The notes: generated from the letters alone by a model not told the origin. Counted from the first letter of the stretch, positions 12,346-42,483 are shown. The stretch: 64,000 nucleotides of DNA from Nostoc sp. DedSLP01 (GCA_034530875.2 JAVRCJ020000024.1:32001-96000); one strand, 5' to 3'. Numbers and translations are program-made.

Positions 12346-12379
12346 CGGATAATTCTCCAAACGGATAGTAGGAAACTAT

Positions 12380-13761: not shown

Positions 13762-13799
13762 CTCTTTGAGGAAATCTCGTTGTGAATTTACTCTTGTTA

Positions 13800-15644: not shown

Positions 15645-15680
15645 TTAACTGAACTGTACGTCCCTCTCAATTCGCAGTAC

Positions 15681-21144: not shown

Positions 21145-22572
21145 TTAAAAAGCTGAATGCATGGAATTTTCCGGAATCCAAGTTCCGTGGAAACCGAAAG
21201 GAACTCGCTGCGGTAGAAGAATGCGGGCTACAGGTTCCTCTGTAATGTCTTGAGCATTAAGAACTACTAATTCTGAAGTTCTTGTAGCTTCGTCGTAGAC
21301 GAAAGTTAATAACCAACCATCATCCTCTTGAGTAGCGTGGGGACGCGGGACAAATACTGCCTCTCCTCCATAACGACCAGACCCCCACTCGTGGGTTTGG
21401 GAATAACCATTGGCAAAGTCATACTTAATTACTGCATCTAAAAAGAAAATAGGCAGCTGTTCCGGCACCATTCTGGCTGTGTAACCGTATTGATTTCGTC
21501 TGCCGACAAATTGCTGATTTAAAGTAGGAAATTCTGAAGCCAAATCATCAATTCTGCCTTCTCGCACTGCACCTGTGCGCAGATTGAAGCGCCAGCCATA
21601 TAACTGCGGCTTATTAACTTGATTATAGCGTAAATTTGTCTTTGTCGGTATGTTTAGTAGTTGAGCATCATCTGTGCGACAGCCAATGACGACAACTTCC
21701 TCTCCTGTTTCATAAGCATTGAGAGTATGCAAAACATAACAGGTAGAAACTTCAAACCAGCGGATATTGCTGTTATTGCCATGACGGGGAATGATACCAA
21801 AGCGGCTGGGCAGATTTGGTTCAAACATGTAACCTGGTTCTCTGCGTCGTAGCCTTTCTAAACTCAATGTCAGGGGCAAATCCATGAATATTGTATAGTT
21901 TGCAGTGATGGCAAAGTCATGCATCATGACCCCTCTAGGCAAATCTATGGGAATTGTTCTCAGTAACTCTCCTTTAGCTGAAACTACACCATATCTTAAA
22001 TAAGGTGGCTGTAGTAGAGAATAGCCAAAAAACATCATTTCCCCAGTTACAAAATCAACTTTCGGGTGAGCAGTGAAGGGAGAATTCAGTTGTCTTTTAT
22101 AAGCGAATGGCCCGATTGTTGTTAAGTCAGGTACGCTAATTTTGTATGGTTCAGCTCCCTCCCAAAGGGCCAAGAGTTGACCTGCGTGCCACACCAGGTT
22201 AGTGTTAGCAGTGTTCTTGAACGGACTGAAAAGATTATTGGGGGGGTTTTGCAGCTGTGGCGACTCCATCAAACTTGTCCAGATGGCTTTACCTACTTTC
22301 TGTTCTAGTTTAAATCCCCGTGTCTGGACATAGCGGTTGCGGTAAGTGGCTTTGCCATTACTAATCTGCACCCCATGCAACATACCATCTCCATCAATCC
22401 ATTTGTAATCGCCTTTGGGGAGAAATTGAGGATTAGGGCCATTGCGAATAAACATTCCTGATAAATCAGTTGGTAATTCTCCAATTACCAAGAGGTTACC
22501 GGCTGTGATTTCTGTTTGTACGGGAGAAAAATTACCTGTGAGATAAGGGCTGATTTTTTGAGCGACAATCAT
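21145..22572 (-). CDS. Carotenoid cleavage oxygenase (RPE65/CCO) family protein
   Basis: RNGPNP, DGDGMLH, four Fe-ligand His (TAHPK, MMHDF, VLHTLN, GFHG), EDDGWL; likely start MIVAQK at 22572. Confidence 0.92.
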   Translation of the reverse strand: MIVAQKISPYLTGNFSPVQTEITAGNLLVIGELPTDLSGMFIRNGPNPQFLPKGDYKWIDGDGMLHGVQISNGKATYRNRYVQTRGFKLEQKVGKAIWTSLMESPQLQNPPNNLFSPFKNTANTNLVWHAGQLLALWEGAEPYKISVPDLTTIGPFAYKRQLNSPFTAHPKVDFVTGEMMFFGYSLLQPPYLRYGVVSAKGELLRTIPIDLPRGVMMHDFAITANYTIFMDLPLTLSLERLRRREPGYMFEPNLPSRFGIIPRHGNNSNIRWFEVSTCYVLHTLNAYETGEEVVVIGCRTDDAQLLNIPTKTNLRYNQVNKPQLYGWRFNLRTGAVREGRIDDLASEFPTLNQQFVGRRNQYGYTARMVPEQLPIFFLDAVIKYDFANGYSQTHEWGSGRYGGEAVFVPRPHATQEDDGWLLTFVYDEATRTSELVVLNAQDITEEPVARILLPQRVPFGFHGTWIPENSMHSAF

Positions 22573-22610
22573 AGTTAAAACTATTTGATTATGGTGAATA
22601 AGATTATTAG

Positions 22611-23966
22611 TTAATGCTTCTTCTTTTCTGGGTAGGGAGGATATCTCCATTTCAAATCCATCAGAAAAGATTTATTTAATATACCTCTTTGATAAGAGAA
22701 GTTATCAAAGCCAGCTTTACCATGATAACGACCCATACCACTAGCACCAACTCCACCAAAAGGTAAAGCCGGAACGGTTAAATGCATCACGGTATCGTTA
22801 ATGCAAACTCCACCAGAGACTGTTTGCTGCAAAATTCGCTCTTGATTTTTTTGATTGCTGGAAAAGAAGTATAAAGCAAGGGGTTTTGGTTGTCGATTAA
22901 CTAAGGCGATCGCCTCTGATAAATTTGTATACTCTAAAACAGGAAGAATTGGGCCAAAAATCTCTTCTTGCATTATCTTGTCTTGCCAAGAGACTTTATC
23001 AATGACAGTAGGAGCAATATAAAGATCCTCTATATTTGTTTCGCCTCCCACTAAAATTTCCCCACTTCCTAATAATTGGGAAAGGCGACAGAAATGCTTT
23101 TGATTTATGACTCTAGCATAGCTCTTACTTACTGAAGGGTCATCACCGTAAAAATTTCGGATTTGTTTTTTGATATTGGTCAATAAATCTGTTTTAATTT
23201 TACGATTTACTAACAGATAATCGGGTGCAGTACAAGTTTGCCCAGCATTAAAGAATTTGCCCCAAACAATTCTTTTAGCTGTATGTTCGATGTGAATATG
23301 CTCGTCAACAATACAAGGACTTTTGCCACCAAGTTCAAGGGTAACTGGTGTTAAATTTTTAGCGGCTGCTGCCATCACAATTTTACCAACTTCAGTACCG
23401 CCAGTAAAAAAGATATGGTCGAAATTTTTTGATAATAGTTCTTGACTGGTTTCAATACCGCCTTCAATGACTTCAATAAAAGATGGGTCGAAATTTTCAC
23501 GAACTATTTTAGCTATAAGTTGAGAAGTAGCAGGAGCTATTTCTGATGGTTTTAAAATTGTACAATTTCCAGCAGCGATCGCACCTACTAAGGGTGCAAA
23601 CATCAAGTTAAATGGATAATTCCAAGGCCCAATAATTAAAATTATACCAAGAGGTTCAGAACGGATTTGAGCAGAAGAAAGAAACTGATAAAAGGGAGTA
23701 GGAGCTTTCTGCGGTTTTACCCACGATCTAATATTTTTGAGAGCAAATTTAATTTCTTCTAAAACTCCAATAATTTCAAAATACGCTTCAAATCCTGACT
23801 TATGCAAATCAGCTTTTAAAGCTTGAACAATATTATCTTTATTGTTCTCAATTACTTGTTGAAGAATTTTCAGTTGTTGAATCCGAAAATCAATATTCTT
23901 AGTTTTGCCAGTATTAAAAAACTGGCGCTGATGTTCGAGTTCATTATAATCTATTTGAGTGAGCAT
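22611..23966 (-). CDS. Aldehyde dehydrogenase (ALDH3/CALDH-like)
   Basis: PWNYP, LELGGKSP (Glu), NAGQTCTAPDY (Cys), EEIFGP, PFGGVGASGMGRYHG. Confidence 0.95.
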   Translation of the reverse strand: MLTQIDYNELEHQRQFFNTGKTKNIDFRIQQLKILQQVIENNKDNIVQALKADLHKSGFEAYFEIIGVLEEIKFALKNIRSWVKPQKAPTPFYQFLSSAQIRSEPLGIILIIGPWNYPFNLMFAPLVGAIAAGNCTILKPSEIAPATSQLIAKIVRENFDPSFIEVIEGGIETSQELLSKNFDHIFFTGGTEVGKIVMAAAAKNLTPVTLELGGKSPCIVDEHIHIEHTAKRIVWGKFFNAGQTCTAPDYLLVNRKIKTDLLTNIKKQIRNFYGDDPSVSKSYARVINQKHFCRLSQLLGSGEILVGGETNIEDLYIAPTVIDKVSWQDKIMQEEIFGPILPVLEYTNLSEAIALVNRQPKPLALYFFSSNQKNQERILQQTVSGGVCINDTVMHLTVPALPFGGVGASGMGRYHGKAGFDNFSYQRGILNKSFLMDLKWRYPPYPEKKKH

Positions 23967-24081: not shown

Positions 24082-25953
24082 TTAAGACCTGATTTCAGCT
24101 TGTAGTGATACTAATTCTGGAACTTTTGCTGTATCTTCGTTCTTTAGGCTTTGTAATTCATTAGTTCCATTTTCTACGCTTTTTCCATTACCCAAGCTAA
24201 TCCAAGGCTGCAATTTTGGTTGATGTTGGTAACTCTTGAAAGCTTCTCTAGCTTTTGCAGTGATACTGTTGTCTGGTACACCTCTAGTTTTCAATTTGAA
24301 AATAAAGTTATCCCAACCAGCTACAGCAGATGCTTTCAGTAAAGCGAAAACGTGCTTGAGGTTTTGTGGCGCTAACAAGCCTTTTATTCCAAATGCCTTC
24401 CACAAAAACTTCAGATACCAAATAGCGACAAAGAAGTGAGTGTATTGCATAGAAACAAAAACATTAGCTCGTTGGGGTTCATACTTAGTGAGGTGGATAT
24501 ATTCATCAAAATCTCGGCTCATTATGTAATTAAAAGGCAATTCATCTGCTCGATGGGTATACATAAACCCAATATTGGCGTTCTTTTCTGCCAACTCTGT
24601 TAACTGTTTGTAGGCAGCATTTAGTATCTCTGTAATGTATACACGACCTGGTTGTTTAATTTTTGCCAGGAAATTCAAATCTAAATGCCATTTCCCTACA
24701 TACAAAGGAATCATCATACCAAACCACCACATGTTTTCTAGGAACATGCGATAACTCATGATGCTAGCGTTACCAAGATGTTTAGGATGATTGCTAACAA
24801 GAAGATTGTTGCGATCGATCATTCCTAAATTAAAGCCGTTATAAACTGCACGTTTCTTCTCTGCATCTGGTTCGCCTGCTAACTTAGCGCGAATTACTTC
24901 TGTAATGGTGTCTATTTCAAAAGACATCATCGTCATTCCCATCGAATAGAAAGGATCGAAGATAGCTGCTGCATCACCAATTACATACCAGTTATCTCTT
25001 GAGAGAATAGTCTTACTCTTGTGCGCTAGCCTTGGCCAGTAATGAAAATCGATTTCCTCTCCACTCTTGAGCAGTCGATAAATAATGTTATGATTCGCTT
25101 CCAGAAAAGCATAAAACTTTTCTTTAGTATTGACACTGTGAGCATCAATATATTCGTGATGGTGGACTAATCCGATTGACAATTCCATGTTTTGGGTGTC
25201 TGTGGGAATCATCCAAATCCAATGTCCGTGTCCCATCCAATGATTAGTAGCGTAGTAGTGGCTACAGGTGGAAACTAAAGGATCGTAACCGCTATGAAAG
25301 ATAGTGCGATCGACATTTTTAACGCGCATCCATGCCGAACCATTATTAACGCCACACACATTTTCAGGGCCAAATAATAGATTATCTGTCTTACGACCGA
25401 TGATAAATTTGCGTCCTGCCGCATCAATAACATGTTTGGCTGTAAGTTCGATATACTCACCATCTAGTTTGACTTTCACCACATTCAAACCATCTCCAGG
25501 CGTTAAGTCAACATCAACAACACGGCCTTGATAAAAGACAGCACCCATCTGTTGATTCATCCTCAGCACATCTCGCTCAAATTTAGGACGGTGAATCAGA
25601 ACAGAAGCCAAGGGCGGTTGGCGAATAGCCCAAAGATGATGGTAGTCATTAATGTTTTCTGTACTTTCTGGATGCTTAGGCCAATGAAAGTTTAAACCGA
25701 ATTTTGGCGGATGATGCTCAACCATGTAGTCATAAAGACCCAACTCTTTACAAATCATTAACGTAGAGATTTCAACCGCTGATTCACCTACTTTCAAATC
25801 TTTTTCTGTCCGTTCTTCAGGACGAGGATCGACCAAAGCAATTTTGATATTGGGAACATTAAGTAACAGGTGACGAGCTTGGCATACCCCTGCTAATCCA
25901 GCACCCATAATTACTACATCATAATTATAGGTTTGGCATTGAGTGCTATTCAT
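24082..25953 (-). CDS. Flavin-dependent halogenase (cyanobacterial AerJ/McnD/ApdC-like), copy 2
   Basis: GAGLAG FAD motif, KVGES, WIWMIP (WxWxIP), GDAAAIFDPFYS.G. Confidence 0.85.
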   Translation of the reverse strand: MNSTQCQTYNYDVVIMGAGLAGVCQARHLLLNVPNIKIALVDPRPEERTEKDLKVGESAVEISTLMICKELGLYDYMVEHHPPKFGLNFHWPKHPESTENINDYHHLWAIRQPPLASVLIHRPKFERDVLRMNQQMGAVFYQGRVVDVDLTPGDGLNVVKVKLDGEYIELTAKHVIDAAGRKFIIGRKTDNLLFGPENVCGVNNGSAWMRVKNVDRTIFHSGYDPLVSTCSHYYATNHWMGHGHWIWMIPTDTQNMELSIGLVHHHEYIDAHSVNTKEKFYAFLEANHNIIYRLLKSGEEIDFHYWPRLAHKSKTILSRDNWYVIGDAAAIFDPFYSMGMTMMSFEIDTITEVIRAKLAGEPDAEKKRAVYNGFNLGMIDRNNLLVSNHPKHLGNASIMSYRMFLENMWWFGMMIPLYVGKWHLDLNFLAKIKQPGRVYITEILNAAYKQLTELAEKNANIGFMYTHRADELPFNYIMSRDFDEYIHLTKYEPQRANVFVSMQYTHFFVAIWYLKFLWKAFGIKGLLAPQNLKHVFALLKASAVAGWDNFIFKLKTRGVPDNSITAKAREAFKSYQHQPKLQPWISLGNGKSVENGTNELQSLKNEDTAKVPELVSLQAEIRS

Positions 25954-26177: not shown

Positions 26178-27998
26178 CTATAGTTTGGCGGCAACTAACT
26201 CTTGCTCTGGCAACTTTTGAAATTCAACACTTTTACTCGCAAACCAAGGCTTCAACTCAGGCTGATATCTATAACTCTTAAACTCTTCTTTAGCCCTAGC
26301 AATTTCACTATTAGCCGGGAGATTTTTGGTCTTGCACCGATAAATAAAATCATCCCAGCTAGCTTGAGCAGATGCACCGAGTAAAGCAAAAACATGTTTC
26401 AGATTCTTTGGCGACAACAGACCTTTTAATCCAAAACCTTTCCACAAGAATTTAAGATACCAAAGAGCAACAAAGAAGTAAATGTTTTTCATATATGCAA
26501 AAACATTGCATTTTTGAGGTTCGTATTTCGTGTTTTGCAGATAGCTATCAAATTCTTGGGTCATGTAATAGCCAAAGGGTAACTGTTGCCCTCTATGAAC
26601 GTACATCATGCCAATATTGGCGTCTTTTTCTATCAGTTCATTGAATTGTTCGTAAACATGAGACATCAATGTTCTAATAACTTGACGGCTTTGTTGGCTA
26701 AATTTACGCAGAAACTTCAAATCTAAATGCCATTTGCCAACATACATAGGCACAATCATGCCGAACCACCACATATTTTCAAGGTAGACGCGCCAGCTCA
26801 TGATGCTAGCGTGACCGAGTTGTTTGGCGTGGCCGTGGAGAAGATGATTGCAAGATTCTATATAGCCAAGATTGTAAGCATTATACACAGCCCGCTTCTT
26901 CTCTGCATCCGGCTCGTTTGCTAATTTTGCTCGGATAATTTCTGTGACACTTTCCATTTGGAATGTCATCATTACCATTCCTAAGGAATAGAAAGGATCG
27001 AAGATGGCAGCCGCATCACCAATTACATACCAATTATCTGGAGAAAACAGAGTTTTACTCTTATGTGCTGCCCTTGGTAAGTAATGAAAGTCAACGTCTT
27101 CTCCACTTTTAACTAGTTGGTAAAGAATGTTGTGATTGGCTTCTAGAAAAGCATAAAACTTTTCTTTGGTGTTAACACTTTGGGCTGGAATAACTTCATG
27201 ATGATGGGATACTCCTACTGATAATTCCATAGTTTGAGTATCTGTAGGAATGACCCAAATCCAATGGCCGTGACCCATCATGTGATTGGTGGCATAGTAA
27301 TGGCTGCATGTCGCACCTGTAGGATCGTAACCGCTATGGAAAATAGTGCGATCGACATTTTTAACTCGTACCCATGCAGAACCATTATTAAGACCAGCAA
27401 GTTTCTCAGGGCCAAAGAGTACATTATCTGTTTTATGGCCAATGATAAATTTGCGTCCTGCTGCATCAATAAGATGTTTGGCTTTCAGTTCTACGTAGTC
27501 ATTACCTACTTTGACTTTAACATTATTTGGAGTATCACCAGAGGCTAGATCGACATCAACTACACGACCATTGTAAAAGTCAACTCCCATCTGTTTATTC
27601 ATTTTCAAGACATCACGCTCGAACTTAGCGCGGTTCATCAGAACGGAAGCTAGCGGGGGTTGTTTGATAGACCAAACATGGTAATAATCATCAATGCTTT
27701 GGGTATTTTTTGGGTCTTTCGGCCAATGATAGTTTAGTCCATATTTGGGCGGATGATTCTCAATTAAGTAATCATAAAGACCCAATTCTTTGCCGAAAAA
27801 GAGAGTGGAAATTTCGACAGTTGATTCACCTATTTTTAAATCTTTTTCGGTTCGTTCTTCAGGACGGGGGTCAATTAAGGCAATTTTGATGTTGGGGATA
27901 TTTAGTAGTAAGTGACGAGCTTGAGATACTCCAGCTATCCCAGCACCCATAATGACGACATCGTAAGTTTGAGAGCGAGTTGTTTTGTTGACTGACAT
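26178..27998 (-). CDS. Flavin-dependent halogenase (cyanobacterial AerJ/McnD/ApdC-like), copy 1
   Basis: GAGIAG, KIGES, WIWVIP, GDAAAIFDPFYSLG; paralog of 24082-25953. Confidence 0.85.
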   Translation of the reverse strand: MSVNKTTRSQTYDVVIMGAGIAGVSQARHLLLNIPNIKIALIDPRPEERTEKDLKIGESTVEISTLFFGKELGLYDYLIENHPPKYGLNYHWPKDPKNTQSIDDYYHVWSIKQPPLASVLMNRAKFERDVLKMNKQMGVDFYNGRVVDVDLASGDTPNNVKVKVGNDYVELKAKHLIDAAGRKFIIGHKTDNVLFGPEKLAGLNNGSAWVRVKNVDRTIFHSGYDPTGATCSHYYATNHMMGHGHWIWVIPTDTQTMELSVGVSHHHEVIPAQSVNTKEKFYAFLEANHNILYQLVKSGEDVDFHYLPRAAHKSKTLFSPDNWYVIGDAAAIFDPFYSLGMVMMTFQMESVTEIIRAKLANEPDAEKKRAVYNAYNLGYIESCNHLLHGHAKQLGHASIMSWRVYLENMWWFGMIVPMYVGKWHLDLKFLRKFSQQSRQVIRTLMSHVYEQFNELIEKDANIGMMYVHRGQQLPFGYYMTQEFDSYLQNTKYEPQKCNVFAYMKNIYFFVALWYLKFLWKGFGLKGLLSPKNLKHVFALLGASAQASWDDFIYRCKTKNLPANSEIARAKEEFKSYRYQPELKPWFASKSVEFQKLPEQELVAAKL

Positions 27999-28118
27999 TT
28001 TCTGTTTTGTTCGTTAAAAGTTTTGAGAGGTGGGCAGATTTTTGATGAAACCTCATTTTGTGGTATCACGCAGAGGCGCTCCAGACGCAGAGGAGAGAAC
28101 GCAAAGTAAGGACTTGAG

Positions 28119-31100
28119 TTAAATTGAGCCAGCAATCCAATTTAAGGAACGGAATGGAATTACAACTAAGGCAATCATTCTTTCAGGGCTGCGTGTTAGT
28201 TTGATGGGGAAGGTGAGAACTTTAAGTTGGCTGTTGGCAGTGGCATCGCTGAATAAGATGCTATCCCCTTCTATGCGTTCGATCGCCAAATTAATATCTT
28301 TGACTTTAGTCGCCTTACGCAAGGCTTCTATAGCTGTCCAAATCCGCGTACCTGCGCTATCTACTGACTCTTTAGTTTCTAGCTGTTGGATTAATGGATA
28401 TCGAGAAGAATTCAGTAAGGCAATCCAATCTTCGGTACTGCGATGAGTTATCGGTTCGATATCGCAACCTTGCACTCCTCGACCGGCAACGCAGAAACAA
28501 ACACGTTCGTCATGGGCAAGGGATACTTCGATTTTTTCTTCCGCCAGTCCCACAACTACTGGTTTGCCAGATTCCGTCCACTGAATGCGGACTTTGGATA
28601 TGAGATTAGCATTATTGTTCAAAAGTTGAGCGATCGCTCTGTGGAATAAAGGTAATTCCAATTGATGGCGTTCTGTGGGTAAGAGTGTATGGATACCGGG
28701 AAGATAACCCAATGATATCTCTGGTGCGACAACTTTGAATAAAGGCGATCGATTGCTCAATTCTCTAGCAAGAATCAGTTCATCTCTTTGACTGGGATCT
28801 GCCAAATCTTCAGCAGTGGGATTCTCCTGGCGGTGTTCTAGTATCCGCAATTGATAGCTATTGAGTCTTTCGATAACACGACCATCGGGAGCTACTAAGA
28901 AAACATTACTGCGATACTGTTGACCTTCTCGCCCTTGTGGTGTAGTCACACCAATATACGAACCAGCTTCATCTTTATCTGATTGATAGATTTCAATACT
29001 ATCGATGCGGATGGGCAAACAAAGATCCTGGGGAATTACTAGTTGTCCGGCTTGTAACAAAGAGTCTCTGCAATAAGGATCTCCCAGTAAGAAAGGCCCT
29101 TGCGCTCTATCTAAAGATTGTTTTTGCTCCTCGGCAGAATACAAGTTTCTTTGGGTTTTGAATACGCACTTCTGGGAATTCAGGCTATAAACCTGTTGTA
29201 AACGCTGGAACTTGGTCCCTTGGAATAGTAACCAACTATAGAGATCTGCTTGAGGCTCAATATCTAGAGGCACTTCTGGAACTTCAACCTGTTCTAGAGG
29301 TGGCTGTTTGTCAACATCTAGTAAAAATGTCGCTGAAAAATGGCTGATGGCAAATCCTGTCTGTTCTGTTTTGATGGTGACATAAACTTGCTGCGGATCG
29401 CTTTTTAACTTCCTCTCCAGTACCTCTGCATGAATTTCTATGTCTACTCCTTTGTCAGGAGCTACAACAATAGGACGTTCCAGACGGATATCTTCTATTT
29501 GTACAGCTGGTAAGGAATCTTGACTGGTGACATAAGCAACTGCTTGTGCCATAGCTTCCAAACCAAATACAGTCGGGAACAGATACGAACCTTTATACAG
29601 GTGATCATGTAAGTATGAATCCCGTTCCAGACTCAGATGCGCCCTGAGAACAACCTCTACACCTGGTTGATAAATCAAGATTTTCTCTAAAAACTTCGAT
29701 TTAGCAGGAGGTGAGAACAATCCAGGATACCAAGTATCAAAGCCACTCGATTCAAAAGCTGCTAAGGTTTGCATCGGTGCGGCTATCACAACTCGCAAAT
29801 CTGCGGCTTCATTTTTGATGAGATGCAAGAATCGACTAACGCCTGCATCTTTGGGAATGGCACTAATACCCATCTTGTTCAGGCTGCGCACGCTACCCAT
29901 CCGCGCCCCCATACCTACTTCTTCCCAGACGCTGTACGCCATTGATACCACGGCAGTTTCAGGGTGCTGGACTTGAAAACGGCGTAAAATCAGATCCAAA
30001 GTTTCATTAGAGAAGCCATACCAAGCATTGCGTTGCATCCCTGTAAAGCCGATGACTGAAGAGAAACCAGCGAAAAGCTTCAGTGATGTACCTTCTAGTG
30101 CTTTACAGAGATTAATCAAACCGAGAAGCTTAGGACTGATTTCATCAAATGCTGCTTCTGTAGAGACTTGCTCAATCAGTCTCGGCTTATTGAGAGCAGC
30201 CCCGTGAATAACTCCTGATATCTCACCTAGTTCTTGTCTGACTTTTTGTAAAAGATTAACTACTGCTTGATAGTCAGCAACATCGCACGCATAGTAGCGG
30301 CAGGTTAATCCTTCAGATTGAAAGCGTAAGAGAGTGCGGGTAATATCAGAATTACTGTTGTCATCCTGATGAAGCGAACGTCCCACAAGTACCACGCGGA
30401 CACCTGTATCTTTAGCCAGAGCCAAGGCACACTCGGCAGTAATACCTTTTGCTCCACCTGTAACGAGGATGACATCCTCAGATGACCAGGTAATATTCCG
30501 GTCTAAATAATCTACAGGTTGCTGTACCTGAGGCCGAGGAACGTAACGTCTGAGATCGGTATCGTAACTTACAGTTGTATAGACGTGGGGAGTAGAAAGT
30601 TCTCTAAAGACGCATTCTGCTAGATTATTGGGATCTACCGTAGGAGAGAAATCAATTACTCGAACTTTGAGATCGGTTCGTTCTAGATGCAAGCTGGCAG
30701 CAAAGCCAACTGTACAGCATTGGTCGATATCTGGTAGTGGCAGTTTTGCTCCGAAATATCCCCCACTAAATTGAACGTAAGCTACTGTTGTATGGTCGCG
30801 GGATGCTAGAGGTGGAGTGGCGATACTGCGTAACCGTTCAATCATCCCAATCAGACGAGCTTCTGATGACAGTTGAGCATTCGGTGTAGAAGGTAATACC
30901 GCGATGAAGTGGGTTAAATTGAGGCTGTTAGCTAGTGTTTGAGGGCTGGCTTCTGCAAAGGTTAGACTTTGAACTTGAGCGCCTTGAGTCCGAAGTTGGT
31001 CTGATAAGGCTGCTATTTTGTCTGCATTACTTAATTCATAAAGAATTAGGACATTTGCAGCTTGCCAGTTTTCTTCCATCTGTCTGCCTAAAGCGACTGA

Positions 31101-34100
31101 GGGAATTTCCTCTGGAACATTTTGGACGATATAATCGCGTACCAGTTGCTTACGGGTTAACTCTGGCCCGATCGCTGTTATTTTGCCATTGTTTTGTCTA
31201 AAATCTTGCTTGAGAGAAACTGTTGAGCTAGATTCTGAGATTTTGATTCCATTACCGTTACCATTATTGTTTGGTATGTAATTGTGAATTGTCTCAGCAA
31301 TCTCTTGAATCGTGGCGTTGGCTAGAGAAGGCGGGTCAATTTTCCCGGCGGCGCCAAATAGCTTGGCGGCTTCTGCGACGACTTCACCGGCTTTGATGGA
31401 ATCAAGGTTGAGGTCGTCGAGCAATCGCAATTCGGCTGTGATACTTTCTCTGACATATCCTGTTTGTTGGATAATCAGGTCAGTCAGTGAAGAGGCGATC
31501 GCATCAGTTGTTTTCGTTAAGCTTGTGGGTATTATAGAAGCTGCTTCATGACCGTTGGATATGAAACTGCGAATCGTTTCAGCTATCTCTTGAATTGTGG
31601 CATTGGCTAAAGCAGGTGGGTCAATTTTCCCAGCCACACCATATTGTTTGGCGGCTTCTGCGACAATTTCACCGGCTTTGATGGAATCAAGGTTGAGGTC
31701 GTCAAGCAATCGCAATTCTGCTGTAATACTTTCTCTGACATATCCTGTTTGGCGAACAATCAAGTCTGCTAACAAGAACTCAACACTCTGATTAGTGTTT
31801 GTTTCTGCTGGCTTCAGTAACGTAGAAACGGTACTGTGGGAACCATTACCATTAACTGCATGAGTTATTCTCGCACCATTTTGAGGTGTTGCAGCTAAAG
31901 GCAGAGTTTGCATATCGGCTCGGATGACTTCAGCGATAAACTTACCGCGTCGAGCCAGGTAATCTTGCAGTACCTCTGGTGAAGTATGGTTATGTTCGGC
32001 AAACAGCGAATAATTCAACAAGCTTTCAGAACCAATTCCCAAGGATGGAGATGAGTGAGTTGCAGATACAGCAAATGGCCTTTCTACAGGATTGTCGATG
32101 AAAATGCGCTCTGAGGCTGGTACAAAAGGACGTACAAGCCGACCTTCGTAAAGTGCTTCCCAGTTGATGTTATGACCGCGAACAAAGACGTTAGCTAACA
32201 TCGTATTCAATGACTGGTCAAATCCAGGTTTGGCTTCCACTGGCAGACATTCCAGCCCTTGCAACCCGGTGATGTCGTTTACCAATCCTGAGAGTACTTT
32301 GCCAGGGCCGACTTCTATGAGGACATCGCATATTTGCTCTAAGGTTTTCACCAGGGATACGAAGTCTACTTGTGCTAATACCTGATGGGCGAAGTGTTCG
32401 CGCAATTGCAATCCTATTGGTGGCTGTTTGCCATCTACAGATGAAACTAGGTCTAAGGTAGTGTTCGAGAGTCTATCTGGAATTAGTTCGTATTTGTGTA
32501 GATATTGGGCGGCTTCCGAGACAAGTTGAGAATGAAAGGCATGAGAAACTGGCAGCTTGTGTGTCCTGATTTCTTCCGCGGCGGCGAGTTCAATGACTTG
32601 TTCGATGCTCGATCGCTCGCCAGATATAATTATCTGGTTGGGACTATTGATATTGGCGATCGCTACATAGCCATTGACTTGCTTTAACAATTCCTCGGCT
32701 TTTACACGGGAGCAAGCAATACTTACCATGCTTCCGCCCTGCTTACACGCAGACATAGCGCGTCCCCGAACAGCAGCTAAACGAATCAAAGCTTGCTCGT
32801 CAAATGCACCTGCTGCGTGAAAAGCAGTTAGTTCTCCCAGACTATGACCGCCGACAGCAACGGGGTTTAATCCTAGATGTTGCAGGTAGCGCATCCAAAG
32901 CAAAGAAGTTAAGCAAATAGCTGGTTGAGCGATTTCAGTTTGGGCAATTTTCCCTGACCATTCTTCAAGCTGCTCTCCATTGATAGCCCGGTCTACAGGC
33001 TGATAAATCGACTCATTAATACCTGGAACACCAATTTCTTGCAGCCATTTGTCGGCTCGATTTACTAATTCCTTCGCCCAGCTAAAGCGTTGTACGAGGG
33101 TACGGGCCATGTTCAGCTTTTGAGAACCTTGACCGGGGAAGAGAAAACCGATACGGCTTGGTTGGACTTTATGGCCGACCCAAATTCCTTGTTGTGAGTT
33201 GAGGATGACCTCTCCCTCGGCTAGTGGTTTAGCATTCAACAATTCTTGCAAGAAAGTCAGACGTTCAACTAACTCATCAGGCGATCGCGCGATAATTGCT
33301 GCTCTAACTGGAAGTTCCTGATTGACTTTTTGAGCAAGATGTGATGCTAAATCGATGAGTTCGCTTAAACTCAAACCTTGGACTTTCGGAAGTAATGCAT
33401 CTATGCGTTGCAACAAACCTGCAATTGATGCCGCACTCAAGACAAAAATCTCTGTTTCTTGAGCAGAAACTAACAAAGCTTCCTCGTCAATTGACGGTTC
33501 TAGTTGAGTAGCAGGAGCATCGCCAGATTCTAAAGTAACGTGGCAATTGATACCGCCAAATCCCATCGCGGAGACTCCAGCCCTGAGCGTATCTGTTGGC
33601 TGGCGAATTTCTCCTTGCATCACCGGGTAAAGAGAACGAGCAGCTTTGTCAAAGACTTCGCTTGGCTCGTTGCAACCGGCTAATGGCGGTATGACTCGGC
33701 GGTTAACAGCCATCACAGCTTTGATGAACCCGCCAATACCTGCTGCGGCTTTGGTATGTCCGACTAAAGATTTGAAGGAGGTAACACCACAAGAACGGAA
33801 ATTGGTTTCGCTATCCGCACCCATCGCTAAGGCAATACCTTCTAATTCGGCGCGATCGCCTACTGGTGTGCCGGTACCATGACCTTCGATAAAATCAACC
33901 TGACTTAAGCTGTAACCTGCTCGGTTATAGGCGCGGCGTAGTGCCTTGGCTTGTCCTTCTCGAGAAGGAGCTGTTAGCCCGCCTTTACCATCAGATGAGA
34001 TTCCCCAGCCATTCAACACTGCATAGATATAATCGTTATCGGCCCGGGCATCTTCTAAGCGCTTCAAAACGACAAAACCAGCACCCTCTCCGGGGATAAA

Positions 34101-34925
34101 ACCACTGGCTTTTTTATCGTAAACGGTCATATCTTTGCTAGTTAAGGCACCTGTTTTAGCAAATCCTACTAATTCAAAGGTGTCTAAGCTAATATCTACG
34201 CCGCCAGCTAGTGCTAAATCGAGGTCGCCATTGCTTAATGCATTAGCAGCAGTGGCAACGGCAATCAATGAGGAAGAACAAGCGCCGTCTACCGTATAAC
34301 CACCACCATGAAAGTTAAAGAAGTTACAAATTCTGCCAGCAATAGTGTTAGAAAGATTTCCAGAAAGTGTGTCTTCGGTGAAGGGCGAGAATACTGATTT
34401 GTAGTATTCTTGCATTGCCGTTGTCAGTTCATCTACGACTTGTAATGGCAAACCCTTGGCTTTTGCGGCTGTCTGTATGACTCGTTCGATAAACGGCCAG
34501 CGTAGCCGCATGTTATTAGAGCGTGTTTGTTCGCCTGTTAAGGAGTTACCGAGGATGACTCCTGTACGTTCGTTGGGAACATTGGCCTTTGTATAACCTG
34601 AATCTTGTAAGGCGGCGATCGCTACTTCTAATGCCAGCCAGTGAGCGATATCTGCGGTCTCGACTACAGTTTTGGGAATGCGCTTACTTGCCCAATCAAA
34701 ATCAAAACCCTCAATCACGGCCATACGTTTGCCGTAGGTTTTGTCTGGCACCGCCGGGTCTGGATCGTAATAATCTGCAAGTGGTAAACGCTGCACTGGC
34801 GATTCTCTAAATTGTCGCCGCCGGGAAAGTATGTTTTCCCAAAGTTGTCGTAAATCCCTCGCACCAGGATACCAACAACCCATACCAATAACCGCAATTC
34901 TAGGTTGAGATATTTCTATTTGCAT
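28119..34925 (-). CDS. pksE: Enediyne-type iterative type I polyketide synthase (PKSE-like): KS-AT-ACP-ACP-KR-DH-PPTase
   Basis: KS DGACSSS/EGHGTGT/GHTKAAAG with PKSE-like HWLAL...GNSLTGE..RSNNMRLRWP; AT GHSLG + HAFH (malonyl); two ACPs LDDLNLDSIKAGE; KR GGAKGIT..YGFSN; DH HLYKGSYLFP; C-terminal PPTase SLAHD/GCDIE/WTAIEALRK; no ER or TE. Confidence 0.9.
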   Translation of the reverse strand: MQIEISQPRIAVIGMGCWYPGARDLRQLWENILSRRRQFRESPVQRLPLADYYDPDPAVPDKTYGKRMAVIEGFDFDWASKRIPKTVVETADIAHWLALEVAIAALQDSGYTKANVPNERTGVILGNSLTGEQTRSNNMRLRWPFIERVIQTAAKAKGLPLQVVDELTTAMQEYYKSVFSPFTEDTLSGNLSNTIAGRICNFFNFHGGGYTVDGACSSSLIAVATAANALSNGDLDLALAGGVDISLDTFELVGFAKTGALTSKDMTVYDKKASGFIPGEGAGFVVLKRLEDARADNDYIYAVLNGWGISSDGKGGLTAPSREGQAKALRRAYNRAGYSLSQVDFIEGHGTGTPVGDRAELEGIALAMGADSETNFRSCGVTSFKSLVGHTKAAAGIGGFIKAVMAVNRRVIPPLAGCNEPSEVFDKAARSLYPVMQGEIRQPTDTLRAGVSAMGFGGINCHVTLESGDAPATQLEPSIDEEALLVSAQETEIFVLSAASIAGLLQRIDALLPKVQGLSLSELIDLASHLAQKVNQELPVRAAIIARSPDELVERLTFLQELLNAKPLAEGEVILNSQQGIWVGHKVQPSRIGFLFPGQGSQKLNMARTLVQRFSWAKELVNRADKWLQEIGVPGINESIYQPVDRAINGEQLEEWSGKIAQTEIAQPAICLTSLLWMRYLQHLGLNPVAVGGHSLGELTAFHAAGAFDEQALIRLAAVRGRAMSACKQGGSMVSIACSRVKAEELLKQVNGYVAIANINSPNQIIISGERSSIEQVIELAAAEEIRTHKLPVSHAFHSQLVSEAAQYLHKYELIPDRLSNTTLDLVSSVDGKQPPIGLQLREHFAHQVLAQVDFVSLVKTLEQICDVLIEVGPGKVLSGLVNDITGLQGLECLPVEAKPGFDQSLNTMLANVFVRGHNINWEALYEGRLVRPFVPASERIFIDNPVERPFAVSATHSSPSLGIGSESLLNYSLFAEHNHTSPEVLQDYLARRGKFIAEVIRADMQTLPLAATPQNGARITHAVNGNGSHSTVSTLLKPAETNTNQSVEFLLADLIVRQTGYVRESITAELRLLDDLNLDSIKAGEIVAEAAKQYGVAGKIDPPALANATIQEIAETIRSFISNGHEAASIIPTSLTKTTDAIASSLTDLIIQQTGYVRESITAELRLLDDLNLDSIKAGEVVAEAAKLFGAAGKIDPPSLANATIQEIAETIHNYIPNNNGNGNGIKISESSSTVSLKQDFRQNNGKITAIGPELTRKQLVRDYIVQNVPEEIPSVALGRQMEENWQAANVLILYELSNADKIAALSDQLRTQGAQVQSLTFAEASPQTLANSLNLTHFIAVLPSTPNAQLSSEARLIGMIERLRSIATPPLASRDHTTVAYVQFSGGYFGAKLPLPDIDQCCTVGFAASLHLERTDLKVRVIDFSPTVDPNNLAECVFRELSTPHVYTTVSYDTDLRRYVPRPQVQQPVDYLDRNITWSSEDVILVTGGAKGITAECALALAKDTGVRVVLVGRSLHQDDNSNSDITRTLLRFQSEGLTCRYYACDVADYQAVVNLLQKVRQELGEISGVIHGAALNKPRLIEQVSTEAAFDEISPKLLGLINLCKALEGTSLKLFAGFSSVIGFTGMQRNAWYGFSNETLDLILRRFQVQHPETAVVSMAYSVWEEVGMGARMGSVRSLNKMGISAIPKDAGVSRFLHLIKNEAADLRVVIAAPMQTLAAFESSGFDTWYPGLFSPPAKSKFLEKILIYQPGVEVVLRAHLSLERDSYLHDHLYKGSYLFPTVFGLEAMAQAVAYVTSQDSLPAVQIEDIRLERPIVVAPDKGVDIEIHAEVLERKLKSDPQQVYVTIKTEQTGFAISHFSATFLLDVDKQPPLEQVEVPEVPLDIEPQADLYSWLLFQGTKFQRLQQVYSLNSQKCVFKTQRNLYSAEEQKQSLDRAQGPFLLGDPYCRDSLLQAGQLVIPQDLCLPIRIDSIEIYQSDKDEAGSYIGVTTPQGREGQQYRSNVFLVAPDGRVIERLNSYQLRILEHRQENPTAEDLADPSQRDELILARELSNRSPLFKVVAPEISLGYLPGIHTLLPTERHQLELPLFHRAIAQLLNNNANLISKVRIQWTESGKPVVVGLAEEKIEVSLAHDERVCFCVAGRGVQGCDIEPITHRSTEDWIALLNSSRYPLIQQLETKESVDSAGTRIWTAIEALRKATKVKDINLAIERIEGDSILFSDATANSQLKVLTFPIKLTRSPERMIALVVIPFRSLNWIAGSI

Positions 34926-35101: not shown

Positions 35102-35602
35102 CTAACTAGCTATCTTGACCATTTCTTCAAACTTGCGATCGAGCATTTGCATAATTGTGGAAATCTTTTCATCGGGGAATTGACCTAGCAGTGACGATGG
35201 TTTGTCATAAGCAACATGTGTCTTACCATCGTAGTCATCGTAGACAAATAGCCTTAATGGAACATAAAGACCAACCGCAGGGTTTTGTTCAAACATTTGA
35301 TTGGCTATTAATGGGTTACCGATTATGTAAAGCTTGGCCTTTTTATTTTTACCAGCAAGAGACATGAGTTTGCCATGTTCAATTTGCGAAAAGATGGTAA
35401 AACCGCTTTGACCAATCATCGATTCAATACCACTTTTTATTTGTTCAAACGATTGCTTGGCTGCAATCATTTGTTGAAAAAGTGCGCTGTCAATTTTACC
35501 ATTGATGGTTTCGATATTATTGGTAACTTCTTCAAATGACTTTTCCGAAGTAACAATTATACGAGTTGCTGTAAAATTGACGGTTTCTATCACAGTTTGC
35601 AT
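35102..35602 (-). CDS. DUF302 domain protein
   Basis: KSFEEV, F.IF..I.HG, IGNPLIA..M..NP.VGLYVPLRLFVY pattern. Confidence 0.8.
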   Translation of the reverse strand: MQTVIETVNFTATRIIVTSEKSFEEVTNNIETINGKIDSALFQQMIAAKQSFEQIKSGIESMIGQSGFTIFSQIEHGKLMSLAGKNKKAKLYIIGNPLIANQMFEQNPAVGLYVPLRLFVYDDYDGKTHVAYDKPSSLLGQFPDEKISTIMQMLDRKFEEMVKIAS

Positions 35603-35739: not shown

Positions 35740-37662
35740 TTATGTGAGAACAAAGCGTTCTTGGAGAATGCAAGTACTGAGCATTTTCATCAATGTCGGA
35801 TCTATAGAACCGAGTTGATTTTCATTCATGTGTGGTATTTGGTCGAGGAATTGAACTACTGCTGGTTGGTTATAAAAAGGAACAGAAGCAAATGCTGAAC
35901 TGCGTAAGGTGTCTTGGACAAGTTGGTGTAGAGGTTCGTTTTGCTTCAATGTGGAAGGCGGGGCAAAAAATGGATGTTTTTTGCGGTTATATACCATATC
36001 TGGTAGATAAGGTTTGGCAGCTTCTCGCAATATGTATTTGACATTCATGCCACGAATCTTCAATGAAACAGGAATATTGCGCACTGTTTCTACAAGTTCA
36101 TGGTCTAAAAATGGTAGTCTTCCTTCTGTAGAATGCGCCATTTCTGCACCATCTCCCAATATCCTAAATAGGTAGGGTAGAACAGTTTTAGACCATAAAT
36201 AAAGAGACTGATGAACGGGTTCTCGTTTTGCTAGTTGTCCTTGGACGTCGATTTCATTGAAGAATATACGATATGCATCTCGCTGGCCAAAGTGAGCTAA
36301 AAATTCTGGTGAGTATAGAGAAAGAGATTTGGCATATCCTTTAGCATTAGCTTCTATCCAAGTGGGTACAAACCCTAAAAGGCGTTCGATATTAGCCAAA
36401 GGTTTGGATATTTCTTCAGGTAAGAAACCGGCTGCGGCGGAGACTTGGTTGTTACGTTTTAATTCTTCCAAGATATGCTTGATAGTCTGTTCGTCTTGAC
36501 CTTTGGTGTTGTAACGCAACATGTCCATCAGAAAATGAACGTAGCCGCCAAAGATTTCATCAGCACCTTCACCTGTAAGTACAACTTTGTAACCTGCTTT
36601 TTGTACTGCTCGACTCAAAAGGTACTTAGCAGCAGCGCCAGCATTGATACACACCATTTCACAGTGCCAAATGGCGTCTGCAAAATGCTCGGCTAAGTCA
36701 GATTGAGTGATGGGGACAATTTCATGGTTTGCTCCAGCTTTGGCTACTGCTTCCCGAGCGAAAACTTCTTCGTTGTAGTCTTCGTGGTCGAAGGCGAGGG
36801 TAAATGCTGTAATTGGCTCGCTTGTATGGGTGGCCGCAATTCCCAACACCGCAGATGAATCAATTCCGCCACTAACGTGACAAGCTACCGGTACGTCTGC
36901 TCTTAACCGCAGTCGTATAGACTCGTTTAAACTATGGCGAACTTGTTGAATATAATCTTCTTCGCTTTGTTGGGGTTGTACATCGTTATTGGGGTAATCA
37001 AAATCCCAATAACGATGCAGTTGGATATTAGTACGAGATGCGAGTAGAAAATGTCCGGGTGGTACTTGATATATGTTTTTGAAGAAAGTCCGATCTGGGC
37101 TGAAGAGTCCGAGATCGGCTCTAAACCAAAATTCGCTATCCCAGTTAGCCGGAACGCCCGCAGCAAATAAAGCTTTGACTTCTGAAGCCAAGTACAGTGT
37201 ATCGCCATGCATAGTGTAGTACAGAGGCTTGATGCCAAAGCGATCGCGCGCTGCAAACAATGTTTGATTGCGCTCATCCCAGATAACAAAAGCAAATTCA
37301 CCCCGCAAATGATGGAGACATTGAGTGCCAAACTCGTTATATAGATGAATCGCAATTTCGCTGTCAGAGTGGGTTTGCAGCTTATATCCTTTTTGCTTTA
37401 AGTCCTGCTGTATCCTCTCAAAGTCATAAAACTCTCCATTGGCAACAATATGGAGTGTGCCATCTCGATCGCTTATTGGTTGGTCTCCACTAGTGAGGTC
37501 AATAATACTAAGCCTTCTATGTCCTAACCCGACTCTGCCATCTTCGGAAATCCAAACCTTCTGTGCGTCAGGGCCTCTATGATGTAGGCTATCTATTCCT
37601 CGCTTCAAAGAGGTTTCGGAAATTGGTTCCTGTCTTGAGAACAATGCTACAATCCCACACAT
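35740..37662 (-). CDS. asnB: Asparagine synthase (glutamine-hydrolysing)-like amidotransferase, cluster-associated
   Basis: N-terminal MCGI (Ntn Cys), HRGPD, GHRRLSIID, ARDRFGIKPLYY, SGGIDSS, TGEGADE, RLPFLD. Confidence 0.92.
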   Translation of the reverse strand: MCGIVALFSRQEPISETSLKRGIDSLHHRGPDAQKVWISEDGRVGLGHRRLSIIDLTSGDQPISDRDGTLHIVANGEFYDFERIQQDLKQKGYKLQTHSDSEIAIHLYNEFGTQCLHHLRGEFAFVIWDERNQTLFAARDRFGIKPLYYTMHGDTLYLASEVKALFAAGVPANWDSEFWFRADLGLFSPDRTFFKNIYQVPPGHFLLASRTNIQLHRYWDFDYPNNDVQPQQSEEDYIQQVRHSLNESIRLRLRADVPVACHVSGGIDSSAVLGIAATHTSEPITAFTLAFDHEDYNEEVFAREAVAKAGANHEIVPITQSDLAEHFADAIWHCEMVCINAGAAAKYLLSRAVQKAGYKVVLTGEGADEIFGGYVHFLMDMLRYNTKGQDEQTIKHILEELKRNNQVSAAAGFLPEEISKPLANIERLLGFVPTWIEANAKGYAKSLSLYSPEFLAHFGQRDAYRIFFNEIDVQGQLAKREPVHQSLYLWSKTVLPYLFRILGDGAEMAHSTEGRLPFLDHELVETVRNIPVSLKIRGMNVKYILREAAKPYLPDMVYNRKKHPFFAPPSTLKQNEPLHQLVQDTLRSSAFASVPFYNQPAVVQFLDQIPHMNENQLGSIDPTLMKMLSTCILQERFVLT

Positions 37663-39284: not shown

Positions 39285-39749
39285 ATGGAAAAGCAAGTTA
39301 ATCGGTTAGATTTAGCTCAACTGATTGCGATTGAAAATACCTGCGCCTGCTTCAATCTGCGTAAAGCATCGAGAGCAGTCACGCAACTTTTTGATGAGAA
39401 GCTAGAGCCAACTGGTTTGCTGGTTACCCAGTTGACGCTTTTAGTTGCTATCTCAATTCTCGGCTCAGTCACAATGAGCGATTTAGCCGAAGGTTTAGTC
39501 ATGGATAGAACTACCCTGACGCGAAATCTCAAGCCTCTCGAAAGGGAAGAAATGATTCAAATTAATCCTGGCGACGATCGCCGGGTGCGAATGATAACCT
39601 TGACGGATAAGGGACGCTCTATTTTGGCGCAAGCATTACCACTATGGCAACAAGCCCAAGCTCATATAGTCGAGAGCTTAGGCGAGGAAACTTTTAATTT
39701 GATGCTGTCGAGCTTAACTGCTACGGTTTCCATAGCTCGGAAAGGCTAA
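39285..39749 (+). CDS. MarR-family transcriptional regulator
   Basis: CACFNLRKASRAVTQ.FD, MDRTTLTRNLKPL, DDRRVR.I.LT..G. Confidence 0.93.
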   Translation: MEKQVNRLDLAQLIAIENTCACFNLRKASRAVTQLFDEKLEPTGLLVTQLTLLVAISILGSVTMSDLAEGLVMDRTTLTRNLKPLEREEMIQINPGDDRRVRMITLTDKGRSILAQALPLWQQAQAHIVESLGEETFNLMLSSLTATVSIARKG

Positions 39750-39766
39750 TTTTTTTTGGATAAAAC

Positions 39767-39778
39767 GTGTATATCCAC
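39767..39778. promoter_or_regulatory. Second putative MarR operator
   Basis: GTGTATATCCAC, 11/12 match to the palindrome GTGTATATACAC, between marR and devB-like gene. Confidence 0.6.
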
Positions 39779-39801
39779 CTAATAAAAGGTCGAGTATTTT
39801 T

Positions 39802-40920
39802 ATGTTTGAGCAAGAAGTATCTTTAACTCCTGAGAAAAACCATAGACCCTCGCTCAAACCTATAGTGCAGTGGGCTGGCATTTTAGGAGCGATAGCAGCA
39901 TTAGGGATAGGTGGATTTGTAGTTTGGAAAGTCAGTTCCCAAAGTGCGGTTGAAAATCAGACTGCGATACCTGCTTCTTTACCTAAAGCAGAAAAAGTTG
40001 TAGAGACAATAACTGCTTTAGGACGTTTGGAACCACACGGTGAAGTCATTCAAGTCTCAGCACCCACTTTTTTAGAAGGCGCACGGGTTGAGAAACTTTT
40101 GGTGGAAGATACAGATTGGGTAAAATCCGGTCAGGTGATAGCAATCCTCGATCGCCGCGAACGCTTGGAAGCTGCTTTTAAACAAGCTCAAAGACAAGTT
40201 GAAGTAGCCCAAGCACACCTAGCACAGGTAAAAGCTGGAGCCAAACAGGGAGATTTAGCAGCCCAAAAAGCAACCATCGCTCGGTTAGAAGCAGAATTAC
40301 GCATTGCCGAAACAGAACATCAACGGTACAAATTTCTCCAACAAGAGGGAGCTATCTCTGCTTCACTGCTAGATTCAAAACGCCAAATCGTCGAAACAAT
40401 TCAAGGACAGCTCAATCAAGCTAAATCTACCTTAACTAGCATTGCAGAAGTTCGTCCGACTGATATTCAAGAAGCTCAAGCAGAAATTGCCAGTGCTGTA
40501 GCATCGGCGCAAAAAGCCAAAGCCGACTTAGAAACCGCCTTTGTCACCGCACCGCAGAACGGTCAAGTTTTAAAAATTCATACTCGTGCGGGAGAGATGG
40601 TTGGAGCCAAAGCGATCGCAGATATAGGGCAAACTAGCCAAATGGACGCCATCGCCGAAGTTTACGAAAACGATCTTGCGAAAGTGAAAATAGGTCAAAA
40701 AGCTACGATTACCAGTATTAACAAAGCCTTCCCTGGAAAACTCCAAGGAACTGTATACCGAATTATTCCTCAAATTGGCAAGCGGGATGTCCTCAATGAC
40801 GACCCAGCAGCAGCAGTGGATGCCAGAGTTGCCGAAGTCAAAATCCGTTTGTTACCGAAAGATAGCAAGCGAATTATGGGTTTGATCAATCTGAAAGTAG
40901 AAGTAGCGATCGCTCCTTAA
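39802..40920 (+). CDS. ABC exporter membrane fusion protein (DevB family)
   Basis: N-terminal TM; ALGRLEP.GEVI.VSAP; coiled coil; AEVYE.D...VKIGQ. Confidence 0.9.
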   Translation: MFEQEVSLTPEKNHRPSLKPIVQWAGILGAIAALGIGGFVVWKVSSQSAVENQTAIPASLPKAEKVVETITALGRLEPHGEVIQVSAPTFLEGARVEKLLVEDTDWVKSGQVIAILDRRERLEAAFKQAQRQVEVAQAHLAQVKAGAKQGDLAAQKATIARLEAELRIAETEHQRYKFLQQEGAISASLLDSKRQIVETIQGQLNQAKSTLTSIAEVRPTDIQEAQAEIASAVASAQKAKADLETAFVTAPQNGQVLKIHTRAGEMVGAKAIADIGQTSQMDAIAEVYENDLAKVKIGQKATITSINKAFPGKLQGTVYRIIPQIGKRDVLNDDPAAAVDARVAEVKIRLLPKDSKRIMGLINLKVEVAIAP

Positions 40921-41020
40921 TTCTGGCAGTGAAAGTAATATGTTTTCTCAATTTCAGGAGTGTAAAAACTCTAAATTGTATTTTCTCAAGAATGAAACTT
41001 AAATTAACTTATGTAATGCA

Positions 41021-42208: not shown

Positions 42209-42237
42209 ATAGAAGGCTCCAAAAAACAAGACTTATT

Positions 42238-42418
42238 TATAGGACTGAGATTTGATTGCGTGAAAAAAATCAGTACATCCAGACAAGGCTTCTGTCCTAC
42301 TCCCTGCCTATCGCGCTTGCGCTGCGCTTCTCTACGAGACGCTTTGCGTAGCTTGCTTCCCCGCAAGGGTACGCGCACCACACAAATAAATTCTCCAAAT
42401 AAAACCGGATTTCTATAG
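42238..42418. repeat. Composite repeat region: degenerate MITE-like ends enclosing nested small dispersed repeats
   Basis: Imperfect ATAG...TTTGATT inverted ends; internal CTCTACGAGACGC and GCGTAGCTTGCTTCCCCGCAAGGGTACGC blocks typical of Nostocales small repeats. Confidence 0.5.
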
Positions 42419-42483
42419 TTTCTGGATATCATTTGAGATTTAATCTTGTCTAACTACTCAATATCCTTTTTTATAGTTTTATT

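Follow-up and report, generated by a model that had tools for sequence, protein, structure and literature searches.

In the enediyne and RerAB systems, a thioesterase (TE) turns a tethered chain into a free polyene. The enediyne polyketide synthase (PKS) known as PKSE is reported to carry a 3-hydroxy-hexaenoyl octaketide that becomes a heptaene through TE hydrolysis, decarboxylation, and dehydration, and pentadecaheptaene formation needs the TE (PMC9992847). Polyenes of C15–C22 are the products of the RerA/RerB pair, in which two ACPs are combined with a PPTase-Y-TE protein (PMC11563203). Here we describe a synthase gene that lacks a TE, located at 28119..34925 (minus strand) in a 64,000-nucleotide stretch of DNA from Nostoc sp. 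DedSLP01 (GCA_034530875.2 JAVRCJ020000024.1:32001-96000). This whole stretch is called the window below. Open reading frame (ORF), Pfam, and motif analyses identify the product as an iterative type I PKS of 2268 amino acids (aa) with the domain order KS-AT-ACP-ACP-KR-DH-PPTase. The synthase resembles PKSE or the RerA polyene synthase, but on the matter of the TE it is a member of neither group.

The gene very probably encodes a functional, TE-less, non-enediyne polyene synthase, judging from its sequence features. Pfam recognizes the KS, AT, ACP, KR, and DH domains. The first ACP (31560..31805, minus strand) was identified by Pfam and its LNLDSI motif, and the second (31275..31520, minus strand; residues 1136-1217) by the same motif and by alignment to the first, with which it shares 76% identity. 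The C-terminal PPTase domain (28146..28688, minus strand, approximate bounds) is weak by Pfam (ACPS, E 0.0096 with the isolated C terminus) and carries a D-x-E motif at residue 2154 and a W-x3-E-x3-K motif at residue 2196. A first-pass annotation of the window had stated that the protein ends right after this domain, and indeed only 73 residues lie between the last PPTase motif and the stop. All catalytic motifs are intact (KS Cys/His/His, AT GHSxG, KR Tyr, DH His/Asp). In comparisons with relatives at dS ∼0.45, dN/dS is 0.12–0.15 overall and 0.07–0.17 per domain. The TE-less synthase is thus maintained by purifying selection.

The spacer between the synthase and the adjacent halogenase gene (27999..28118) is exactly 120 bp, as previously annotated, but its reported repeats amount to two copies of CTCTGCG, and no direct-repeat family was found in it at a minimum length of 10. 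No TE remnant is present in this spacer, which is 61 bp in four close relatives versus 120 bp in the window. Promoter and terminator scans returned signals at chance level only.

The absence from the window of a TE and of the enediyne partners E4 and E5, also claimed earlier, is borne out by a family scan of 43 of the 54 listed ORFs (≥90 aa; the 11 omitted overlap longer ORFs). None of the 43 matches the 4HBT, thioesterase, ASPIC/UnbV, or RnfD/UnbU families of Pfam, and no flavin reductase was found among them. Of the cassette partners, three E3 (DUF1702) genes are present in the window. The host is a Nostoc-like cyanobacterium, with a KS 94% identical to that of a Nostoc mirabile locus. Its genome is 99.8% complete in 113 contigs, and a gene could still lie in unassembled sequence. 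The genome encodes three hot-dog TEs, one adjoining menE and two in unrelated contexts, as well as two stand-alone type II TEs, one of which is beside another large synthase gene. An E10 profile that recovers nine cassette E10s at 1e-25 to 1e-30 found no orthologue in the host genome, where the best score (E 0.017) belongs to the hot-dog gene beside menE. Likewise, no E4 orthologue was found there with queries from canonical cyanobacterial cassettes and SgcE4 of C-1027 (a Pfam ASPIC search alone is uninformative for E4, since no control genome matched), and no E5 orthologue was found with cyanobacterial cassette E5s and SgcE5. The best E5-like matches are two distant RnfD-like proteins on other contigs (27%–32% over 145–180 aa), each adjoining a homologous 458-aa gene; cassette E5s are 62%–70% alike among themselves. 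The acyl-ACP thioesterase family PF01643 gave 0 matches in these searches.

The same search was carried to 39 genomes with a TE-less locus, a set that includes G692, whose truncated locus has an unclear TE state, and several genomes assembled in 1–10 contigs. The E10 profile gave no match at E 0.001 in 32 of them, weak matches (E 3e-5 or worse) in 4, and strong matches in 3. All three strong matches belong to a second PKS locus, and no trans E10 orthologue is present in 36 of the 39 genomes. E4 occurs in one genome of this set, which has a canonical cassette; the positive controls for that search (G078, G126, G491) all matched. Thus, the whole-genome search that had been proposed for an E10/E4/E5 set elsewhere uncovered none in the host, nor an E10 in most of its relatives.

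Several candidates for a hidden TE were rejected. A frameshifted remnant gave no match in a six-frame profile search of the genome, and the spacer has just 120 bp. The DUF302 protein (35102..35602, minus strand), which had been named as a possible disguised TE, shows only DUF302/TT1751-type matches by family and by structure. The DUF1702 (E3) protein encoded at 20188..21129 yields an all-helical model (pLDDT 86.8) with no predicted sheet or hydrolase fold and no PDB match (Foldseek, E 0.001), and DUF1702 was rejected as a TE. An alpha/beta hydrolase lies near some TE-fused and TE-less loci alike and is not in the window.

In relatives of this synthase, the missing TE is a fused C-terminal domain rather than a separate E10 gene. 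Among 59 scorable synthases, 18 run past the PPTase into ∼350 aa of tandem hot-dog TE resembling that of RerB, and 41 end where the window protein ends. The second hot-dog copy carries the E10 motif, and its PDB matches are CalE7, an ACP-polyene thioesterase, SgcE10-type proteins, and DynE7. The placement of a TE gene beside pksE does not hold for C-1027, where sgcE6 follows sgcE and no E10 is found in the 19-kb stretch examined. In the KS-AT and KR-DH trees alike, the basal members are TE-fused, and one TE-less group is nested within TE-fused relatives. With 24 chosen members and three outgroups, the tree shows two changes of TE state, and monophyly of the TE-less forms is rejected (approximately unbiased [AU] test, p 4e-5), in a quick LG+G4 tree with the long branches G308 and G009 flagged and with earlier trees already known when the test was set. 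Because the TE-less forms are not one clade, we infer that the domain was lost at least twice. Given the free-E10 outgroup, two or more losses of an ancestral fused TE are the simplest reading.

Searching 389 genomes of the family for the KS gave matches in 55, with 51 matches at 67%–100% identity and 10 at 48%–53%; a sample of the phylum shows the same bimodal split. A window-type synthase is present in 46 of the 389 genomes. We mapped 60 loci of this first group (G004 and G005 each pieced from two contigs) and 12 of the second. The latter are canonical cassettes, with E3 at 10, E4 at 9, E5 at 11, and E10 at 9 of the 12 loci, some being cut by contig ends, and with no halogenase or oxygenase at any of the 12. 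First-group loci usually have one to three halogenases, and E4 or E5 is found at 0 of 60. The window-type clade separates from three cyanobacterial cassette PKSEs with SH-aLRT 100, in a tree with cyanobacterial outgroups only. On this sequence evidence, the synthase is a member of a separate halogenase-linked clade and not an enediyne cassette gene. The earlier proposal that release must be unusual or supplied in trans stands in one part, as release cannot rely on a cognate E10, but the lack of E4 and E5 is a rule of the clade rather than an anomaly of this locus. The persistence of E3 genes where E4, E5, and E10 are absent could be read as an enediyne cassette in decay. This reading is almost certainly wrong, given the intact motifs, the low dN/dS in every domain, a gene order shared by many genomes, and the separation of the clade from cassette PKSEs.

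Canonical E3-E4-E5-PKSE-E10 cassettes were seen in at least nine cyanobacterial genomes (L039, L044-L045, L133-L149), often with a 182–225-aa protein of no Pfam family. In the G491 cassette, the PKSE is split by insertion-sequence genes.

By analogy with known PKSE and RerAB chemistry, the product of the synthase would be a polyenoyl-S-ACP. A carotenoid cleavage oxygenase encoded at 21145..22650 (minus strand) is our tentative candidate for the release step. Its best PDB match is a CCD1-type carotenoid 9,10-dioxygenase (E 6e-106), and the iron-binding residues His195, 244, 308, and 488 are all present. The best explanation for the data as a whole, which we hold with less than even confidence, is that an intact tandem-ACP synthase makes a linear, carrier-held polyene and that the oxygenase cuts a double bond to free the product. 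In such a pathway, the synthase would build a linear polyene that is retained on the ACP, and the halogenases and E3 proteins would tailor the chain. The oxygenase would then cut a double bond of the tethered polyene to release its far end as an aldehyde, an aldehyde dehydrogenase (22611..23966, minus strand; its paralogue at another site in the genome is 61% identical) would oxidize the aldehyde to an acid, an AsnB-type amidotransferase (35740..37662, minus strand) would turn the acid into an amide, and a DevBCA-type exporter would remove the product. Oxidation, amidation, and halogenation would follow off-loading in any of several possible orders. The oxo-acyl stub on the ACP could be hydrolyzed by a housekeeping enzyme or extended again. 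We regard as doubtful a more specific version in which the KS takes the stub back and re-extends it. From the second round on, every cycle would then yield a polyene dialdehyde, to be oxidized, halogenated, and amidated. This TE-free, self-resetting cycle would have replaced the ancestral fused TE.

The evidence for oxidative off-loading comes mainly from comparison of 41 TE-less loci, which fall into three lineages plus the divergent synthase G308, with 18 TE-fused loci. In the sub-lineage of the window (26 loci), oxygenase genes are found at 24 loci, aldehyde dehydrogenase at 23, halogenase at 22, E3 at 22, DUF302 at 21, and AsnB at 8. The two loci without oxygenase end at contig edges, and the gene is kept in 24 of 24 untruncated loci; halogenases, E3, DUF302, and AsnB are each absent from some complete loci. 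That the oxygenase is the one neighbor always kept favors a role in off-loading. It is retained even in Scytonema sp. HK-05 (L012) and G526, where the cluster is reduced to PKS, oxygenase, AsnB, and aldehyde dehydrogenase, with neither halogenase nor E3. The oxygenase of these two loci belongs to another subfamily (30% identity), which suggests that the slot has been refilled. At least two subfamilies are represented overall, the CCD1 type in the window group and G308 (which has a halogenase as well), and the other type in L012, G526, and G748. Oxygenases occur at 26 of 41 TE-less versus 0 of 18 TE-fused loci, counting loci on one assembled stretch, among which kin are not independent. Furthermore, when the TE of RerAB was inactivated, orange polyenes stayed bound to the ACP in E. 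coli (PMC11563203), which suggests that generic hydrolases of that host did not clear the carrier efficiently.

Other observations weigh against this explanation. The window oxygenase is 62% identical to a stand-alone CCD1-type paralogue of the same genome, and CCD1-type enzymes act on free carotenoids. Thirteen of the 41 TE-less loci, in the two other lineages, have no oxygenase on stretches that extend at least 5 kb past the PKS, so the oxygenase is not a general replacement for the TE. The second TE-less lineage (8 loci) has two halogenases and no oxygenase, aldehyde dehydrogenase, E3, DUF302, or AsnB; the third (6 loci) carries halogenases plus a pair of E3 genes, and one of its loci has an oxygenase. 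A fused TE and an oxygenase occur together in Gloeothece verrucosa PCC 7822 and apparently also in a planctomycete locus pieced from two contigs (L017 and G010:C208), which indicates that the oxygenase could act as no more than a tailoring enzyme on an already released polyene. After the proposed cut, a stub would remain on the ACP. Alignment of the PKSs shows no residue change that follows TE loss (6 candidate columns versus 12 in a control regrouping), and convergent substitutions marking self-release, being no more frequent than in this control, were dropped as a candidate. Finally, no precedent for oxygenase-mediated PKS release was found in the literature searched, which left most subscription chemistry journals outside.

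The existence of TE-less loci without an oxygenase and of TE-bearing loci with one makes generic hydrolysis nearly as likely as oxidative release. Under this alternative, which carries real weight though less than even confidence, the polyene acid leaves at full length, either through a trans-acting housekeeping TE or by slow spontaneous hydrolysis. The free compound would then be the substrate that the oxygenase, aldehyde dehydrogenase, halogenases, and AsnB tailor, and losing the E10-type domain would be tolerated, or even favored through slower release or avoidance of decarboxylation. A single assumption then covers all TE-less lineages, with or without oxygenase. Oxygenase and fused TE coexist in Gloeothece, the host has five generic TEs (three hot-dog and two type II) at its disposal, and PKSE has been reported to yield a free beta-hydroxy acid (PMC9682884). 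However, none of the five is cluster-linked or E10-like (the E 0.017 match lies by menE), one of the type II enzymes adjoins another large synthase gene, ACP-bound species accumulated with TE-inactivated RerAB in E. coli, and 18 relatives keep a dedicated fused domain.

Two flavin-dependent halogenase-like proteins are encoded directly after the synthase, Hal1 at 26178..27998 and a second at 24082..25953 (both minus strand). Hal1 is predicted to halogenate, as the GxGxxG motif, the conserved Lys, and the WxWxIP motif, which are named in PMC2515870, are intact. Apart from the exceptions given below, halogenases of the clade retain their motifs. All three TE-less lineages have halogenases (37 of 41 TE-less loci), as do 15 of 18 TE-fused loci. 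The best PDB match is PltA, and from alignment to this protein we take the conserved Lys to be catalytic. PltA acts on a carrier-bound substrate, according to the title of a reference in PMC6864650. The three E3-like genes, at 20188..21129, 19236..20156, and 18213..19130 (all minus strand), form their own subclade. At least two E3 genes are present at 28 of 41 TE-less versus 0 of 18 TE-fused loci, and the duplication took place separately in two lineages, so this contrast reflects two events. Such features are consistent with a halogenase-like flavoprotein or the duplicated E3 proteins triggering release on the tethered chain, for example by halogenation beside the thioester followed by cleavage; an altered halogenase paralogue in the oxygenase-free lineage, in which motifs are changed (in part Lys to Arg), could also be viewed in this way. 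Release by these proteins is nonetheless improbable, since halogenases are common at TE-fused loci, a comparison across the clade showed no halogenase subclade specific to TE-less loci, L012 and G526 have neither halogenase nor E3, and the E3 model predicts no hydrolase fold.

Several side observations concern the halogenase genes. At 18 loci, both TE-fused and TE-less (for example L107:18017-18373, L022:3530-3928, and L153:34152-34544), the halogenases are followed by a 116–132-aa protein that matches neither Pfam nor NCBIfam; this protein is absent from the window sub-lineage. At L104, L106, and L111 (G684b, G682, and G641), the post-PKS halogenase no longer carries the FAD, Lys, and GDAA motifs, and the D-x-E motif of the PPTase has His for Asp; two of these loci have a stand-alone PPTase-like gene nearby. 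In the oxygenase-free TE-less lineage, a divergent O-methyltransferase-like gene lies upstream at seven of eight loci (L025, L086, L095, L097, L099, L101, and L103). We take this combination of PKS, halogenases, and O-methyltransferase to recall the Dictyostelium DIF-1 enzyme set.

A chain might also leave the ACP by transfer to a lipid, amine, or protein acceptor through an unlinked acyltransferase or reductase, or it might stay protein-bound. The RerAB ACP-bound polyenes are stable enough to purify, and the smallest TE-less locus (G515) shows only a PKS and two halogenases. We consider this quite improbable, given that no acyltransferase or reductase gene recurs at the mapped loci and that a cluster equipped with an oxygenase, aldehyde dehydrogenase, AsnB, and exporter suggests a product that is small and free. 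Direct release as an amide by AsnB is less probable still. AsnB is present in the window cluster and in the reduced Scytonema cluster, but at only 8 of 41 TE-less loci, all in the 26-locus sub-lineage, and also at 3 of 18 TE-fused loci. Moreover, enzymes of the AsnB family adenylate a free carboxylate. Of the oxidative, amidative, and unlinked-TE routes listed in the first-pass annotation, the amidative one has thus become unlikely and the other two are retained. Different TE-less lineages may well use different release routes.

The order of genes in the cluster is AsnB, DUF302, PKS, two halogenases, aldehyde dehydrogenase, carotenoid oxygenase, and three DUF1702 genes, followed by a variable set that is kept in the closest relatives (9443..17813, minus strand). 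This set encodes an RTX-repeat protein, a GMC oxidoreductase, a UbiA-family protein, a PEP-CTERM-like protein, two YCII proteins, and an ECF sigma factor. The two YCII genes are a nearly identical tandem before the sigma factor gene (10717-11654), and close relatives have one; the UbiA-family protein (12380-13453), which may be a prenyltransferase or a terpene cyclase, has two closer paralogues elsewhere in the genome. Divergent genes for a MarR regulator and the DevBCA-type exporter lie at 39285..43215 (plus strand), and DevBC-like genes flank many loci of the clade. The interval 37663-39284 has no ORF of at least 90 aa; five close relatives carry a response-regulator-like gene (274–342 aa) upstream of asnB there. 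After the cluster, an NrtA/B/C-like nitrate/bicarbonate-type ABC transporter trio is found at 5716-8991, and its permease is present at 18 mapped loci (two TE-less lineages and one TE-fused locus). The trio may be part of the system, for example for anion supply. Farther away are genes for a BrxD-like ATPase, a TerB-C coiled-coil protein, and a DUF815 ATPase in a row (48801-53085), and an xisH and xisI pair (58374-59137).

At least two independent losses of the TE, in a common clade whose synthase is kept under selection, have left matched natural TE-fused and TE-less pairs that make polyketide release directly testable. The clade also offers a compact setting for E3 (DUF1702) proteins that function independently of E4 and E5. 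Its polyene metabolites, probably halogenated, would form a family not yet described, and the Microcystis representative was already noted as an orphan in 2008. If it is true that the oxygenase releases the chain, then this would be a new PKS termination chemistry and a new role for carotenoid oxygenases.

That representative, from Microcystis aeruginosa PCC 7806, combines an iterative PksE-like PKS with three halogenases (PMC2442094) and was listed again in two later surveys (PMC3741299, PMC4139720). The passages on this orphan cluster give no product and do not comment on release. The Microcystis halogenases are 61%–62% identical to Hal1, and on these sequence identities the cluster probably belongs to the same clade as the window. 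In comparison, the window adds an oxygenase, an aldehyde dehydrogenase, three E3 genes, and AsnB, and has no TE. Microcystis PKS-linked halogenases group with a Dictyostelium halogenase, far from AerJ and McnD (PMC2515870); on this published placement alone, a McnD/AerJ-like assignment was dropped. Beyond the 2008 mentions, no report of a product, a release route, or a fused versus lost TE for this cluster type was found in the literature searched, with most subscription journals outside.

RerA/RerB of Rhodococcus erythropolis PR4 shares with the window the arrangement KS-AT-ACP-ACP-KR-DH plus PPTase, and has no reported enediyne cassette role (PMC11563203). The PPTase-Y-TE layout and size of RerB (61.5 kDa), likened by description, match the 516–536-aa third pieces of G532, G533, and G362, in which the "Y" region is a degenerate first hot-dog. 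Unlike RerB, the window protein has neither Y nor TE, and unlike RerAB, its gene is accompanied by those for halogenases, an oxygenase, E3 proteins, and AsnB. With the enediyne PKSE cassettes (SgcE/SgcE10/E3/E4/E5, CalE8/CalE7, and DynE8/DynE7), the window shares domain order and a C-terminal PPTase. The synthase is 42% (N-terminal half) and 30% (C-terminal half) identical to SgcE, and the window E3 proteins are 28%–33% identical to SgcE3. In contrast to those systems, the window has two ACPs rather than one and no E4, E5, or E10, and KS identity is 67%–100% within its clade versus 48%–54% to cassette PKSEs. Relative to other CCD1-type dioxygenases, the window copy is a duplicate that resides in a PKS cluster, where its putative substrate is an unbranched polyketide polyene, possibly carrier-bound.

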